From Alphaproteobacteria bacterium UBA1002 (lineage in GTDB: Bacteria; Pseudomonadota; Alphaproteobacteria; Rickettsiales; UBA998): 52,135 nt of DNA. This document shows, piece by piece, positions 10,439 to 17,498 of this stretch; the first letter of the stretch is position 1, and each line of letters opens with the position of its first letter. The notes beneath the pieces were generated by a model that was given only the letters and a program-made list of their open reading frames with translations, had not been told where the DNA came from and ran no database searches. The position numbers and the translations under genes were made by a program. The DNA lies in the NCBI GenBank assembly GCA_002291845.1, contig DBAU01000048.1, positions 1 through 52,135 on the forward strand, given 5' to 3'.

Positions 10439-11254
10439 ATGCGTACATACCGTCACGTCAAAGCCAATCATACGCAGCTGGGTTTTACCCTGATCGAGCT
10501 TTCCATTGTGCTTGTCATTATCGGACTGATTGCCGGCGGTGTGATGCTTGGTAAAGACTTGGTCGAGCAAGCAGAATTGCGCAGTGCCATCAGTGATATT
10601 ACGCATTACACGAGCGCCATTAATCAGTTCAAAAGAAAGTTTTCTGCCCTGCCCGGTGACATGCGAAACGCCACACGCTTCTGGGGAGCTGCAAATGTGA
10701 CACCGGCCGTTTGTGCAACCACGGTGGGATCGGGGACGCAGACCTGTAATGGCAATGGCAATGGATGGATTGCACTAGGCGGGTCTGCTGCAGAAGAGTA
10801 TGAAAAATTTCGCTTCTGGCAGCATCTGGCCAATGCAGGAATCATCGAGGGTGCCTACAGCGGAGTAACTGGTCCCAATGGCACCAGTGAAGGGGTTATT
10901 GGCGTGAACGTACCCGCGAGTCGCATTCAGGGGGCAGGCTACTTCATCGATCATCAGGGAACGGTTCTGCCTGGAAATACTGTCTGGTTTCCTGCACGCT
11001 ATGACAATTTTTTGCAATTTGGTGCGTATAGTGGTTCGGGCCTTATTGGCCGTATCCTAAAGCCAGAACAAGCATTATTTATTGACAGCAAGCTGGATAA
11101 TGGGCTGCCTCATACAGGGATTGTGATTTCCTCCCCAAACACACGACCGGCCACGCCTGATTGCACATTAGGTGCAAACGGTGGCACCCAATATAATCTG
11201 GCCTATGGCATTGCGGCCTGCAATCTTTTTATCCTCCTTTCTGACACAAAATAG
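10439..11254 (+). CDS. prepilin-type N-terminal cleavage/methylation domain protein (pilin or pseudopilin-like, orphan)
   Basis: The leader MRTYRHVKANHTQLG is followed by FTLIELSIVLVIIGLIAGG, the class III signal / N-methylation motif. Confidence 0.75.
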   Translation: MRTYRHVKANHTQLGFTLIELSIVLVIIGLIAGGVMLGKDLVEQAELRSAISDITHYTSAINQFKRKFSALPGDMRNATRFWGAANVTPAVCATTVGSGTQTCNGNGNGWIALGGSAAEEYEKFRFWQHLANAGIIEGAYSGVTGPNGTSEGVIGVNVPASRIQGAGYFIDHQGTVLPGNTVWFPARYDNFLQFGAYSGSGLIGRILKPEQALFIDSKLDNGLPHTGIVISSPNTRPATPDCTLGANGGTQYNLAYGIAACNLFILLSDTK

Positions 11255-12425
11255 CGGCAGTTTTTCTGCGCAGCATCAATAGCGATAAGTCATCCGACAG
11301 TGCCTGACTTTCCGGCATTGTGATCCAGTGGTTGATCAGATGATGCAGGAAGGCCTTTACATTTGTTTCGGCATAGGAATGTTGCATGGATTCCAGTGCA
11401 CACCAGCGATGTAATGCATCCTCTTTCCCATGGCTCCAGCCCTCAATTAACGCATCGCTATACAGTAACAGGGTTGTCTGCGCAGGGAAGTCTATGGTGA
11501 TGGTTTCGTATGTCGCGTTACGAACTGCACCAAGAGGGTAGCCATGCCCGTTTAATGCGAGGGGCTGGGCGCCGTTGCATAACAAAAGCGGTTGTGTGTG
11601 TGCCGCTGTAGCATAAGAAAGTGTTTCGGCCTGCGTATCGAGAACACCGTACCACGCGGTGGCGAAATGTTGGCGGGGCAACAAAGCATAGAGCGCGTGA
11701 TTCAGTGCGGTGAGGTAAGCCCCCGGATCATCAGATGGGACAAGCTCGCGTTGGGTAAGGCTGTGGAAACGAAAACTATTCAGCGCCGCCAGAATTCCAT
11801 GGCCAGTGAAGTCCACCTGATAAAACGCCATGCGTGTTTGGCTGAGCGCTTTTACGCCCCACAGGTCTCCCGATAAGGATTGGCACGGCTGATGATGAAC
11901 CGCTAATTCCACCTGAAATGCTGCTTCGAGCGCGGCGCATTGCTCCGAATTTGGAAGAATGAGGGATTGCATGGCCCGCGCCGTATGTAACTCCTGCTGC
12001 CATTGACGTTGTTTATCCTGCAGCAGGCGCTGCATGGCTACGCGTTGTAGATGGATGGTGGTGCGCGCCACAAGCTCACCGGCTTGTAAGGGTTTTCGAA
12101 TAAAATCCGTGGCCCCAGCGGCAAAAATTTCTGCCAGGCCCTCCATGTTTTCGATGCCGGTTTGCACAATGATGGGGGTTTCCCGAAAGTCCGGCTGCTG
12201 ACGAAGGGTACGGCATACTGTGTAGCCGTCCATGCCGGGCATGATCACATCCAGCAGGATTAAATCCGGCTGATGTTCGAGGGCGGCATGTAAGGCTTCC
12301 TCGCCGTTGGTGGCAAAGAAAAGCTGGTCCACCCCCTGACGGCGCAGGATGGCGGCGGCAATCTGTCGACTATCCGCCGTATCATCTACAATCAGCACAC
12401 GCAGGCCCTGAATGGGGTATGTCAT
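11229..12425 (-). CDS. response regulator with PP2C/SpoIIE-type phosphatase output (RsbU/RssB-like)
   Basis: REC motifs: RVLIVDDTADS, LILLDVIMPGMDG, FIRKP. PP2C motifs: SLSGDLWGV, QVDFTGHGILAAL, LLLYSDALIEG. The start is taken at MTYPIQGL (cat 12423-12425). Confidence 0.85.
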   Translation of the reverse strand: MTYPIQGLRVLIVDDTADSRQIAAAILRRQGVDQLFFATNGEEALHAALEHQPDLILLDVIMPGMDGYTVCRTLRQQPDFRETPIIVQTGIENMEGLAEIFAAGATDFIRKPLQAGELVARTTIHLQRVAMQRLLQDKQRQWQQELHTARAMQSLILPNSEQCAALEAAFQVELAVHHQPCQSLSGDLWGVKALSQTRMAFYQVDFTGHGILAALNSFRFHSLTQRELVPSDDPGAYLTALNHALYALLPRQHFATAWYGVLDTQAETLSYATAAHTQPLLLCNGAQPLALNGHGYPLGAVRNATYETITIDFPAQTTLLLYSDALIEGWSHGKEDALHRWCALESMQHSYAETNVKAFLHHLINHWITMPESQALSDDLSLLMLRRKTAAILCQKGG

Positions 12426-12447
12426 GGAATCATGCATGTGGATTGCC

Positions 12448-12762
12448 TCAGGCGTAAGGGAGCCCAAAAATTTCATTTAAGCGTGAGGCGTGCAGAATAC
12501 GTTGCACCTGCCCTTGCGCCCCGCTCAGATGAATGCGCACGCGGAAACGATCACAATGTTCTTTCAGCAAGAGCAACAAGCCAAGCCCCGAAGAGTCAAT
12601 AAATTCAACCTGACGCAGATCCACGATCAGCGATTGGCAGGAGCTGCCGGCCCGCTCAATTTCCTGGCACAACTGCTCAACCAGCTTGTAATCGTGAAAA
12701 TGCGAGCGTCCGGATAGCTGAACAGCAAATCCGTTTGCGGTCTGCTCCAACACAATGTTCAT
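12448..12762 (-). CDS. STAS-domain anti-sigma-factor antagonist
   Basis: MNIVLEQTANGFAVQLSGRSHF...LIVDLRQVEFIDSSGLGLLLLL; DSSG is a SpoIIAA-type phosphoserine motif. The ATG overlaps the CheB-like stop (ATGA at 12759-12762). Confidence 0.85.
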   Translation of the reverse strand: MNIVLEQTANGFAVQLSGRSHFHDYKLVEQLCQEIERAGSSCQSLIVDLRQVEFIDSSGLGLLLLLKEHCDRFRVRIHLSGAQGQVQRILHASRLNEIFGLPYA

Positions 12763-13796
12763 GCGGGCACCTCGCAAGGCTGAGGGCATGAGGCTGCCAA
12801 AAACTGCGGCATGTTCTCCAGTGCCACGCTGTGATGTTTTCCACTTTGCATCTGCGTTCTCAGAGGTAGCTCTGGCGCAGTTGCGGTAAGTGGAGACTGC
12901 ACCCATGTGGTGGCACCGCATTGCTGCAATGCTCCTAAGCCGTTGCTTCCATCGGTACCGCAGCCGGCCAGCAAAACACCCATGGCGCGTGCACCGACCG
13001 TTTCAGCCAGGTGGGAGAAAAGGTTGTTAAGTGGCTCTGGTTCTGAGGTACGACGACCCGGTAGGATGGTGAGTCCTGTTTGTTCAACACGCAGATGCAC
13101 TGGGTGGCTGCTGCAGGTGATGTACACATGTCCGGGTAACAGCTGCAAACCGGGTCGTGCTGGCAGAACGGTGATTGTCTGAAAGGGGGCGCAGTGTCGG
13201 GAAATCAGTTGTGGAAACGGTTCAGGTAAGGGCTGGGCCATCAGCACGGGTGGCAAACGATCCGGCAAATGACGCAAAAGGTAGCTGACCGCTCCGGCCC
13301 CGCCGGAGGTGGCTCCAAAGGCAATAAGGTGGGGAGGCGCTCCGGTGGGTGGAGGAGGGGTGGTCTCTTCTCGCTTTCGTTTGCGTAACACGCGAATCTG
13401 TTCTGCGCTCCGCTGTGCCGCATGCACTCGCGTATGTAGCTGATCACGCAAAAGACTCATTTCCCGCGCGCTGGTGGCTGTTTTAATCACGACATCAAAG
13501 GCCCCCAGCTCCACCACGCGTAGGCTGGCCTGCAAACTGCGCTGGGTGAGTCGAGTGAGCAGAATGACTGGCGGAGCGACGGCATGCAGAAATGCCTCCC
13601 ATCCTGCACGCCCACGGCTGCCTGGCACCTCGACATCCATCACCACCACATCCGGTGACAAGCGTCGTAGCAAACGCTGTGCCGTGGCCAGATCACCCGC
13701 CGTGCCACAGACTTCGATCGACGCATCACTCTCCAGCAAACAACTGAGCATCTCGCGCATGAGCAAAGAGCCATCGACCACCAGGACGCGCAACAT
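12759..13796 (-). CDS. CheB-like receiver/methylesterase-fold protein (esterase active site apparently degenerate)
   Basis: REC motifs: MLRVLVVDGS..VVMDVEVPG..VVIKT. The C-terminal CheB-fold has LIAFGATSGGAGAV, LLPGHVYI and LLAGCGTDGSNG. QHMP is replaced by QPLP and the FGMP motif is missing. Confidence 0.8.
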   Translation of the reverse strand: MLRVLVVDGSLLMREMLSCLLESDASIEVCGTAGDLATAQRLLRRLSPDVVVMDVEVPGSRGRAGWEAFLHAVAPPVILLTRLTQRSLQASLRVVELGAFDVVIKTATSAREMSLLRDQLHTRVHAAQRSAEQIRVLRKRKREETTPPPPTGAPPHLIAFGATSGGAGAVSYLLRHLPDRLPPVLMAQPLPEPFPQLISRHCAPFQTITVLPARPGLQLLPGHVYITCSSHPVHLRVEQTGLTILPGRRTSEPEPLNNLFSHLAETVGARAMGVLLAGCGTDGSNGLGALQQCGATTWVQSPLTATAPELPLRTQMQSGKHHSVALENMPQFLAASCPQPCEVPA

Positions 13797-13798
13797 GA

Positions 13799-16450
13799 TT
13801 AAAATTCCTCCCACCCGGCTTCCACGGGGGCGTGATGGCCATTGGTCTTGTGCGCACGTGGTGCCAGACGCGGGGTTTTTCGTGTGCTCTCCGCGCGCAC
13901 CGTAACCGCCGGACGGGCAGTAACCGCCGGCGCTTCCTGTGCCTCTTCCTCACGGCCAAGGCGGAAATATCCAATCAGGCCACGTAGCTCGCCACCTTTT
14001 TCGGCCAGGGATTGTGAGGCTGCCGCGGTTTGTTCAACCAGTGCGGCATTCTGCTGCGTCATTTCATCCATCTGCGTGACGGTGGTATTGATCTGATTAA
14101 TACCAATGGCCTGCTCTTGGCTGGCATGAGCGATTGAGCTGACAATATCGGCCACACGTGCCACGGAGCTAATAATCTCCTGCAGTGTTTCGCCTGTGCG
14201 GTTGACCAGATCGGAGCCGCTTTTGACTTGGCTCACGCTCTCCTGAATCAGCATTTTGATTTCCTTGGAGGCCGAAGAAGAGCGTCCCGCCAGTGCCCTC
14301 ACTTCGCTTGCGACCACGGCAAAGCCCTTGCCTGCTTCGCCAGCCCGTGCCGCTTCTACAGCGGCATTGAGTGCCAGCAAGTTGGTCTGGAAGGCGATCT
14401 CATCAATCACACCAATAATATCAGCAATTTTCTGTGATGAGTGCTCTATGGCCTGCATGGCAGTGATAGCTGCGCCCACCACCTCGCCTCCACGCTCTGC
14501 AACCTGCCGTGTCTCGCCAGAGAAGCTGCTTGCCTCTCGCGCACTTTGGGCATTCTGTTTCACTGTGCCCGTCATTTCTTCCATGGAGGCCGCCGTTTCC
14601 TCCAGTGACGAAGCCTGACTTTCCGTACGTGTTGACAGGTCTCGGCTGCCATCGGCGATTTCCGACGCGGATCCACTCACGGACTCCGCCGTATCCTTGA
14701 TGCGCTTTACCAGATCGCGTAGTTGAAGGATGGTATCATTCAGCGCCTGCTGCATGTCACCAAAGGCACCGCTGAATTGCCCATCCATGGTGTGGGTAAG
14801 GTCCCCTTTGGCCAGGTGGCGCACCACCTGAATCGCGGCATCCACCGGACGAATAACGGTATCGAGCAGGCTATTCATGCTTTCTGCCAGCTCACGATAG
14901 AAGCCTTCAAATTGTGCTGCCTCAATCCGTTCAGCAAGGTTGCCTTCCCGCGCACTGGCAATCAGGTGATTGATGCTTTCCTGTGCACGTTTTACACTTT
15001 CCTCGGCGTTCTTTTCATCGGTGACAAAGCGCCAGTCGATAAAGGCTCCGTTGAAGCGGCCATCGCTTGTGGGGAGCTGGTTGGCGGTCAGTGACATCCA
15101 TTCGTCACCAATGCGGAACACCGTATGCAGCGGCAGTTTGGCACGATCCACCAGAGCCCCGCGTTGGTGTGAAGGGTTTTTATGGAAGATATCGATATTG
15201 CTACCCACCATGCGATCCGCTGTCACTGGCAGATGCCGTTCAATTTTCCGCAGTGCACGGCGGGCGGCCTCGTTGAGGTAGGTAATGGTGAAATCGCGGT
15301 CGCACATCATGAGCGGCATCGTGTGATTTTCAATCATGCTCTGGAGGGTAATGTTTCGGCTGATTGCTTGATGCAGGCGCAGGCATGCACGCTGCAGGGC
15401 GCCAATTTCAGTGTCATGCGAACTATCCTCCAGCACGATATCTGTCTGCCCTTCCGCCAGCGCGGAGACGGTGGCAACGGCATGCCGCAGGGGCCGCACA
15501 ATGCTACGCGCGATGAAGAGGGATGCCAGCGTTCCCAATGCCAGCGCCACACAGGCAATGATGATGGAGGAAAGACTCAGTTCGCCAAGTTGCGCGCTTT
15601 CTGTTTGCGTGATGTGCTGCTGTTCTTCCACTTTTTGCTGGGCCAGCCCGCCGGAACGTGTGGTCGCTTCCGTAATAATGCCCGCCATACGCTGATCGAA
15701 CAGCATATTTCGTTCACGGATCAATCCATCCACTTTGCGAAATGCTTGCAGATACGCCGGTAGGATGGTGGAAAGTTGGGTAAGTTCTTCGCTGGATACA
15801 TCTCCCTCGCCAGCAAGCTGGGTGAGAAGGGTATTGATGGTGGTGGAAAGCTGCTCAATATTGGCCGCATGTTCGGGCTTGTTACTGAGCAGAAACTTCA
15901 TGGCTTCCAGTCGAGCGTTTAGGAATGATTCATCCAGTTGCTGCAGAACAGGTTGACGCGCGTCGCCACTGGGAAGCGAGCGGCGAGCGGCATCCAGTAG
16001 CCGGCCACCCTGCGGCCCCAGCACATCCATTTCTTCTTTTACCACCTGATTGCGCTGTGCGATCAGTTCAGCAACCCGTGCCGCATCCGCGCGGTATTGT
16101 ACCAGTAAGCTTGCCAGAGCCTGTACCTCCTGGTGCGGCGTGCCTTCCTTGATATGTGCGGCCGTATCCTTGGCTTGCTGGTCCAGCATATCTAGGCGTT
16201 TAACCAACGCCTCATAAAGCGCCGGATCCATCGTGGTGCGAAATTGCCGTGCCAGCAGATTGACCTCAATAAAGCCTTTTTCAATATCACGCAGCAGCCG
16301 CACATCTTCGACCACGGATGCGAGGATAACAAATTGTTCCCGCGTATGCAGAATCCCGCTGAGCATCTGTCCGGTGGATCCGGCCATCAGGAGCATCAGC
16401 AACAACATTCCTGCGCCAATGCGCCAGCTTATTTTAAAACGTGACAGCAT
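13799..16450 (-). CDS. methyl-accepting chemotaxis protein, domain order TM-periplasmic helical domain-TM-HAMP-PAS-HAMP-MA, with a C-terminal GWEEF pentapeptide (Aer2-like PAS)
   Basis: N-terminal TM, second [25 protein letters not shown] with [16 protein letters not shown] tip [35 protein letters not shown]. The protein ends in ...VEAGWEEF. Confidence 0.9.
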
Positions 16451-16493: not shown

Positions 16494-17498
16494 TTAGAAA
16501 AGTTCAACATCCACATGCCCTTCCTGAGTGGCGGCAGAAGGGCCATGTAGGCTTTGGCGTAACTGTTCGCGCAGATCGCTAAGGTTCAATACGTTCAGAA
16601 CCTCTTCTTCATCTGGGGCGCCATTGCGATGGCTCAGCTGTGCCAATGCGGCTTGTCCGTTGCGAAGATACTGGCAAACACGATCTTGAAATTGCAGGCT
16701 GATAACGGTTTGGGCGATGGTCTGCGCTAAATCTCGCGACGCCAGAGAGGTATGGCGCAGCATGGACTGGAAAGCCTCATTCTGTTCGCCGATGGACGTC
16801 ATCATGTCCCCAATTTTGCTACGCAGAAGGATATTGTCAGAGAGGTCCGTTTCCGCGGAGGCTTTGAGAGATCGGTAACACTGCGCCACACTCTCCGCCA
16901 CATTTCCAATCCCCTGTTCCATCTGATGTGAGAGGTTCTGAATATCGCCGGAGAGCAGCTTTACCTCTGCCGCAACTACGGCGAAGCCATGTCCGGCTTC
17001 GCCCGCCGATTGCGCCTCAATGGTGGCGTTGATCGCCAGCATACGCGTTTGTTTGGTAATTCGCCGGATGGCCTGAACGAGCCGGGTGATATCCTCCAGC
17101 GTGGCTTGTGCCTGATCAAACTGTGAGGCCATGGTAAGGGACAGTTTGGTAATACTTAAAATCCGCTCGATCGAGACATCCAGCGTCTGGCCGATAAGCT
17201 GGAGCGCTTCCTCCAGAGGCATAAGATTGCCTTCAACCTTTACCTTTGCCCCCTGAGCCACCAGTGCATCAACCTGCTGAGCCTGCATCAGGGCTTGCGA
17301 TGCCATGTCCTGAAACCGCTGACTGATCGCATCTGTCTGGGTGGTGACATCGTGACAGGCCCGTTCAATGCAGTCTTGCACCAGTCCAAGCGTGGCCTGC
17401 AGCAAAGAGTTCCCATCGTCCTGAGGCGCGTGGGGTTCTGGCGCCAGGATAGAAGAATAATCGTCCAGGTAGATATTATTGTTGATGTATGTGCTCAT
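16494..17498 (-). CDS. soluble MCP-signalling-domain protein
   Basis: It has no TM segment and the tip motif MLAINATIEAQSAGEAGHGFAVVAAEVKLL. FQDxxxQ motifs lie on both flanking helices. Confidence 0.8.
   Translation of the reverse strand: MSTYINNNIYLDDYSSILAPEPHAPQDDGNSLLQATLGLVQDCIERACHDVTTQTDAISQRFQDMASQALMQAQQVDALVAQGAKVKVEGNLMPLEEALQLIGQTLDVSIERILSITKLSLTMASQFDQAQATLEDITRLVQAIRRITKQTRMLAINATIEAQSAGEAGHGFAVVAAEVKLLSGDIQNLSHQMEQGIGNVAESVAQCYRSLKASAETDLSDNILLRSKIGDMMTSIGEQNEAFQSMLRHTSLASRDLAQTIAQTVISLQFQDRVCQYLRNGQAALAQLSHRNGAPDEEEVLNVLNLSDLREQLRQSLHGPSAATQEGHVDVELF

Follow-up and report, generated by a model that had tools for sequence, protein, structure and literature searches.

A CheB paralog with a degenerate active site in the receptor operon of a freshwater alphaproteobacterial genus

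We analyzed a 52,135-nucleotide (nt) stretch of DNA (the window; contig DBAU01000048.1 of Alphaproteobacteria bacterium UBA1002) and found that one of its genes, which we call CheB*, encodes a protein with the receiver domain and methylesterase fold of the chemotaxis protein CheB from which the catalytic serine and histidine are gone. The gene lies in an operon with two chemoreceptors and a STAS/REC-PP2C partner switch, and because four related freshwater bacteria carry it in an identical position, it has probably been kept as a non-enzymatic signaling part. With moderate confidence, we favor the explanation that CheB* is a young pseudoenzyme, namely a duplicate that stems from the splitting of an F7-type chemosensory cluster and that would have been retained because of a non-catalytic function at the receptor or partner switch, a function that we infer. 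The window genome is a 1.89-Mb metagenome-assembled genome in 110 contigs that is ~90% complete.

Active site, fold and receiver of CheB*

A previous reading of the window, made from the sequence only, had described the frame as an intact CheB-like gene, and this held: the frame gives a 345-residue translation in which Pfam recognizes both a REC and a CheB_methylest domain. The gene and its parts are as follows:

12759..13796, minus strand: CheB* gene (P0001), encoding a 345-amino-acid REC + CheB-fold protein in which the catalytic Ser and His are gone
13467..13787, minus strand: CheB* receiver domain, residues 4-110 (PF00072 Response_reg, 44.8 bits)
12801..13325, minus strand: CheB_methylest fold, residues 158-332 (PF01339, 95.9 bits, cut-off 24; Foldseek 1chd TMt 0.83)
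13305..13310, minus strand: codons ACC TCC for Thr163-Ser164, at the positions of CheB Ser164-Thr165; the nucleophile is lost or swapped
13230..13232, minus strand: codon CCC for Pro189, at the position of the catalytic His190
12951..12953, minus strand: codon GAT for Asp282, the retained triad Asp (CheB Asp286)

Using phmmer, we aligned CheB* to Salmonella CheB (1A2O) over residues 2-333 with no large gaps (E = 6e-40). This alignment set the CheB segment G162-A-S164-T-G-G against G161-A162-T163-S164-G165-G166, and I-I-T-Q-H190-M-P-P-G-F against L-M-A-Q-P189-L-P-E-P-F, such that the nucleophile Ser is replaced by Thr and the catalytic His by Pro. The triad Asp was kept, with D282 in GCGTDG opposite CheB D286, and the CheB stretch C-V-V-F-G-M-P was found opposite ATAPELP (residues 305-311). 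Three MAFFT alignments reproduced the catalytic columns, and the motif assignments of the sequence-only reading, i.e., GASTGG turned into GATSGG, His190 into Pro, VVFGMP absent and the Asp context surviving, were thus recovered. The positions of the Ser164-His190-Asp286 triad are occupied by Thr163, Pro189 and Asp282, and hence the software alignment, one of the checks which that reading had proposed, placed no Ser/His/Asp triad in CheB*. The protein also scored far below the curated CheB cut-offs of NCBIfam (176.6 versus 293 for NF001965; 162.2 versus 342 for NF009206). Cys279 was considered as an alternative nucleophile and rejected, as its column varies among the orthologs (C, T, M, R, T). 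An AlphaFold2 model built from 36 sequences reached a mean pLDDT of 92.2 and a pTM of 0.89, and Foldseek superposed it on the full-length CheB structures 6YMZ and 1A2O with TM-scores of 0.83-0.85 over ~345 columns. With its general base changed from His to Pro, its nucleophile from Ser to Thr, and both positions drifting among orthologs, the proposal that this CheB is catalytically dead is well supported by the alignments.

In the receiver, CheB D10-D11 corresponds to D8-G9 of CheB*; the phospho-acceptor D54 (13637-13635), K105 (13484-13482) and T82 are kept, and the K-P pair has become K-T, matching the previous description of a REC half that keeps D54 and the Lys and carries DG in place of DD. 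Among the five orthologs (counting the window protein), Asp54 and Lys105 are invariant (5/5) and the CheY-Thr87 position holds Ser or Thr in 4/5. The second acidic residue, whose CheY counterpart Asp13 is an Mg2+ ligand, is lost in 4/5 (replaced by G, S, A and Y), the Pro next to the conserved Lys in 5/5 (T, T, S, I, S), and the Pro after the phospho-Asp (D-x-x-M-P) in 4/5, being kept in the window CheB*. Compared to its same-genus orthologs, the window CheB* is about 50% identical in the receiver half and 34-35% identical in the esterase half, versus 56-63% for the receiver half of the canonical CheB paralog. The notion of a plausible receiver hence stands in part: the invariance of D54 and K105 and the better conservation relative to the esterase half speak for it, while the losses of the second acidic residue and of the K-P proline speak against it. 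The further claim that CheB* would act in a phosphorylation-dependent manner came out weaker than proposed; Asp54 and Lys105 are compatible with it, but because the receiver is atypical and four of the five orthologs are without the CheY Asp13 equivalent, phosphorylation dependence of the CheB* role is doubtful on sequence grounds.

The ATG of CheB* (13796) lies 2 nt after the stop of the receptor gene (which ends in GWEEF-TAA), agrees with the N-termini of the orthologs, and is preceded by a Shine-Dalgarno-like stretch, GGGAGGAA, within the last codons of the receptor gene. An earlier start, GTG at 13814, was rejected, as it would add 6 unmatched residues. At the other end, the CheB* stop and the STAS start overlap as ATGA, in line with the translational coupling that had been claimed, though this overlap is specific to the window genome, with gaps of 14-22 nt at the orthologous loci. 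The C-terminus of the window protein is 8 residues longer (...ASCPQPCEVPA, 12759-12785) than those of its orthologs, which stop at ...ELC or ...EAC; the overlap arises because the window CheB* lost the ancestral stop. A scan for an operon promoter and terminator gave no signal above the shuffled background. An assembly error behind the CheB* sequence is unlikely: orthologs from independent assemblies carry related changes, and the identical protein is recorded on 2 contigs, which lends weak support because both contigs may share source data.

Orthologs and selection

We found the same locus in 4 other species: it is present in the same-genus genomes G001 and G002 and on two metagenome contigs, of which one has a freshwater source. 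The shared gene order runs MlaD-MlaF-MlaE, the divergent sMCP(McpA-like)-Aer2-like(GWEEF)-CheB*-STAS-REC-PP2C, and then xseA and purD. This synteny, conserved in five species, strengthens the link that the sequence-only reading had drawn between CheB* and the neighboring GWEEF receptor. The same reading had raised the conservation of the substitutions as a further point, and here the outcome was negative, with A/H, A/Q, S/D and S/H at the Ser/His positions of the other four proteins:

Window: Ser/His/Asp positions T/P/D, acidic pair DG
P0035: Ser/His/Asp positions A/H/D, acidic pair DD
P0036: Ser/His/Asp positions A/Q/D, acidic pair ES
G001 ortholog: Ser/His/Asp positions S/D/D, acidic pair EA
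G002 ortholog: Ser/His/Asp positions S/H/D, acidic pair DY

A word-based homolog search gave a best identity of 35%, and an exhaustive search was needed to reach the orthologs P0035-P0037. Among the nearest CheB representatives from both searches, 177/183 keep Ser/His/Asp, the 6 exceptions being the window CheB*, three of its orthologs, an orphan (P0071) and one truncated protein. When the window protein was taken together with 80 loci of GTDB species representatives, 79/81 kept the three residues, and the exceptions were the window protein and a same-genus ortholog. Triad loss is rare across the CheB family and concentrated in the window clade. The orphan P0071 (L110 1532-2566) is a full-length CheB-like protein with His changed to Lys and the acidic pair ED, and its gene is an unrelated one that is flanked by genes for a DUF218 protein and a tRNA synthetase and has no che genes around it. 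In a family-level relative, the best CheB match (G009:C28:120947-121978, L011) contains an in-frame TAA stop, which may reflect pseudogenization or an error in sequencing.

In a maximum-likelihood tree, the five orthologs were monophyletic (100/100) on a long stem (1.34) and fell among canonical CheBs of the same order, which are F7-type wherever gene context was examined, with the exact sister left unsettled. The window protein and P0035 were sisters (100/98), as were the G002 protein and P0036 (99/89), and these pairings imply three separate losses of His, which became Pro, Gln and Asp, and two or more of Ser. The loss in CheB* is young and confined to one genus, and the window genome still has the complete CheR/CheD/CheB complement of this F7 system. 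Two catalytic residues have been hit independently at least five times among five species, and the birth of a pseudoenzyme appears to have been caught early. CheB* is a variant of the known CheB family and not a new kind of system, and its replacement residues vary across its orthologs.

To describe what decays and what stays, we scored in the five orthologs the 72 columns that are at least 85% conserved across 161 canonical CheBs. At the active site, S164 was kept in 2/5, T165 in 0/5, H190 in 2/5, M283 in 1/5 and G313 in 0/5, the last position being acidic (Asp or Glu) in 5/5, a shared derived change. Lost columns concentrated at the active site and at the phosphorylation pocket of the receiver (the second Asp and the Pro that follows the phospho-acceptor). 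G165, G166, Q188, F194, G278, G280, D282, G283, G286 and most core positions were invariant, and the invariance of the glycine-rich and GxGxDG loops suggests that the substrate pocket is still used. CheB* is the fastest-evolving gene of its locus, with 36-45% identity between species, compared to 47-58% for STAS, 51-57% for REC-PP2C, 58-71% for the receptors and 67-90% for housekeeping neighbors; the canonical CheB paralog of the same genomes shows 55-56%. The nonsynonymous divergence (dN) was 0.46-0.66 for CheB* and 0.39-0.46 for the canonical paralog, and the synonymous divergence (dS) of CheB* was >1.6 or saturated; since dS is saturated or undefined for every gene of the locus, the dN/dS ratios (omega) are rough upper bounds. 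All five CheB* frames are open over 336-345 codons. From these comparisons, we conclude that CheB* is kept by selection that ignores the catalytic residues. Together, the kept parent fold, the lost catalytic residues, purifying selection and conserved orthologs are those expected of a pseudoenzyme.

The split cluster, its receptors and its output

CheB* is encoded in an operon that is otherwise made up of two receptor genes and two output genes:

16494..17498, minus strand: McpA-like soluble methyl-accepting chemotaxis protein (MCP), 334 amino acids, first gene of the operon (PF00015, 73.5 bits; C-terminus DVELF)
13799..16450, minus strand: Aer2-like methyl-accepting receptor, 883 amino acids (Pfam, NCBIfam NF041847; GWEEF end, codons 13802-13816)
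12448..12765, minus strand: STAS anti-sigma-factor antagonist, 105 amino acids (PF01740, TIGR00377; DSSGLG phospho-serine motif)
11229..12476, minus strand: REC-PP2C/SpoIIE phosphatase (PF00072, 93.3 bits; PF07228, 117.4 bits; canonical receiver with DD, D, T and K-P)

The Aer2-like receptor consists of an N-terminal transmembrane helix, a periplasmic part of ~270 amino acids, a second transmembrane helix, HAMP, an Aer2-type PAS region that carries DIFHKNP...IDW, the MCP domain and the terminal GWEEF. Two standard methylation-site motifs can be read in its sequence, by which it is predicted to be still methylatable. One ortholog of this receptor (L023 4121-6997; 958 amino acids) has extra PAS domains. 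The McpA-like soluble MCP ends in a tail of the form D/E-(V/I)-E-L-F (window 16494-16511), which also ends CheD (L001 2526-3152, minus strand). This tail, with examples such as ...HVDVELF and ...EGEVELF, recurs on McpA-like MCPs and CheD in CheB-containing clusters of the order, which are F7-type where context was examined (also at L007, L010, L012, L013, L014, L016, L017, L021, L023 and L024), and may be a second tether-like peptide beside GWEEF. The window operon is without an RsbW-type (HATPase_c_2) gene of its own. The only match to HATPase_c_2 over the cut-off in this genome is a 175-residue frame on another contig (G000:C61:933-1337, L025), whose product is a candidate kinase or anti-sigma partner of the STAS and REC-PP2C proteins.

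The remainder of the chemosensory system is located elsewhere in the genome (G000), where two canonical CheBs are encoded, each with the motifs ASTGG and QHMPP. One canonical cheB follows cheD on contig C18 (L019 4925-7026), whose end is the 3' part of cheR, and contig C51 (L109 9668-11125) ends with cheA-cheW and the 5' part of cheR; judging from these ends, the two contigs probably join within cheR to give cheA-cheW-cheR-cheD-cheB, a core in which cheW and cheR enclose no receptor gene. The same receptor-less core, cheA-cheW-cheR-cheD-cheB, is found on one contig in G002 (C126, L024). A second che cluster of the window genome is on contig C5. In a family-level relative (G011, L020), one contiguous cluster reads cheA-cheW-aer2(GWEEF)-cheR-cheD-cheB(canonical)-STAS-REC-PP2C. 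By gene content and layout, namely an Aer2-like GWEEF receptor, cheA/W/R/D/B, and STAS with a Ser-phosphatase, the system of the window genome matches the F7 (Che2-type) kind. A stage-1 F7 cluster has been described in gamma-proteobacteria (bioRxiv 10.1101/653600), and the G011 cluster equals it but has no mcpA-like gene between cheB and STAS.

We suggest the following course of events. The ancestral F7 cluster would have had the order cheA-cheW-aer2-cheR-cheD-cheB-(mcpA)-STAS-REC-PP2C and would have been split in the ancestor of a small freshwater alphaproteobacterial genus, leaving a working core, cheA-cheW-cheR-cheD-cheB, at one locus; at the other, the two receptors would have stayed together with a second copy of cheB and with STAS/REC-PP2C as the partner-switch output. 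As the canonical copy would have supplied the esterase activity, selection on catalysis in the duplicate would have ended. The Ser, His, Thr165, Met283 and Gly313 positions may then have drifted, while the fold, and the receiver half above all, stayed under selection. The resulting CheB* keeps the two-domain fold, would be unable to use a Ser-His-Asp triad against receptor glutamyl methyl esters or amides, and, presumably co-produced with the Aer2-like receptor, could serve as a non-catalytic binding subunit of a receptor/partner-switch complex. As candidate actions, it might sit on the GWEEF tether or on the methylation helices, or it might connect the array with STAS/REC-PP2C. The genus thereby offers a natural dissection of the enzymatic core (CheA/W/R/D/B) from the receptor/output operon: apart from a CheB that does without its active site, no Che protein remains next to the receptors and the partner switch, which points to a non-catalytic CheB job there.

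Alternative explanations and known systems

The variation and fast evolution of CheB* would also be expected of a redundant duplicate without a function of its own, i.e., a future pseudogene whose open frame is transient. CheB* indeed evolves fastest in its locus, its catalytic residues vary among orthologs as they would without constraint, the window copy has the longest branch, its ancestral stop is lost with an 8-residue extension as a result, and the genome also encodes an intact canonical CheB. Such slow decay is nonetheless unlikely, as the five species, at dS >1.6, all retain frames of 336-345 codons with no stops or frameshifts, dN is 3-6 times below dS, ~40 fold-defining columns are still invariant, the conservation of the receiver is near that of the canonical paralog (0.50 versus 0.56-0.63), and gene order is strictly conserved. 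We would also give a low probability to the idea that the receiver is the part that matters, with CheB* competing for the F7 CheA or serving as its phosphate sink and the esterase fold being a regulatory or structural appendage. The invariant Asp54 and Lys105, the Ser or Thr at the CheY-Thr87 position in 4/5, and the higher conservation of the receiver relative to the esterase half of the window protein would fit this idea, but they are set against the loss of the Mg2+-binding CheY Asp13 equivalent (4/5), of the K-P Pro (5/5) and of the Pro after the phospho-Asp (4/5), a Pfam receiver score of 44.8 bits versus 93.3 for the neighboring REC-PP2C, and the invariance of the GG, Q188 and GxGxDG loops, which a mere appendage would not need. 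A residual hydrolase with a non-canonical site, for example with Thr163 or a shifted Ser164 as the nucleophile and some other base, is very unlikely. Hydroxyl residues do stand at and beside the nucleophile position (T163, S164), and Asp282 and the glycine-rich loops are kept; yet position 189 is Pro and provides neither His nor another base, the Gly313 position is acidic in 5/5, and in orthologs the nucleophile position can be Ala and its neighbor Ala, His or Ser, so that no alternative nucleophile is conserved. In CheB of E. coli and Salmonella, substitution of Ser164 or His190 abolishes activity.

Several observations weigh against a selected pseudoenzyme. The terminal branch of the window CheB* is by far the longest (1.93 versus 0.56 for its sister) and its esterase half is only 34-35% identical to that of same-genus orthologs, so that this particular copy could be sliding toward loss. 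Since the G002 protein keeps Ser/His/Asp, the ancestral duplicate may have been active and the loss perhaps recent. Furthermore, the AlphaFold alignment consisted mostly of canonical CheBs, which favors a CheB-like model.

If CheB* was indeed kept as a pseudoenzyme, one conceivable role, to which we attach little probability, is that of a non-hydrolyzing "reader" that docks on GWEEF and the methylation helices and relays the modification or signaling state of the Aer2-like receptor by way of its atypical receiver directly to STAS/REC-PP2C. The array would then gain a second output, to a sigma-factor pathway and bypassing CheY, and the duplication would amount to a subfunctionalization that separated a pre-existing scaffolding role of F7 CheB from catalysis. 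Ancestral F7/Che2-type systems, namely the Aer2 arrays found in Pseudomonas, Vibrio and Shewanella, are tied to stress-response partner switches and are poorly understood in their output and logic.

CheB* shares the two-domain architecture and fold of CheB from Salmonella (1A2O) and Pectobacterium (6YMZ). It differs from canonical CheB, a copy of which is also present in the genome, by the changes of Ser164 to Thr and His190 to Pro, by changed Thr165, Met283 and Gly313 positions, and by a receiver without the second acidic residue and the K-P proline. We found no description of catalytically inactive CheB paralogs in the searchable literature. The closest CheB type is that of F7/Che2 systems such as P. 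aeruginosa CheB2, which CheB* resembles in being encoded beside an Aer2-type GWEEF receptor. CheB2 binds GWEEF with a dissociation constant (KD) of 93 uM, and whether a CheB binds the pentapeptide is not predictable from any sequence feature (PMC7698151). The gene set as a whole is that of the ancestral stage 1/2 F7 clusters (V. cholerae cluster III, P. aeruginosa Che2, Shewanella Che1 with CrsR/CrsA), which comprise Aer2-like and McpA-like receptors, cheR, cheD, cheB, an anti-sigma antagonist and a REC-phosphatase (bioRxiv 10.1101/653600; PMC9855816). CrsR has an anti-sigma kinase domain (PMC9855816), whereas the window phosphatase is without one. Unlike in those clusters, the genes of the window lineage are split in two, and the receptor/output operon is without cheA, cheW, cheR and cheD and instead carries a second, apparently inactive cheB.

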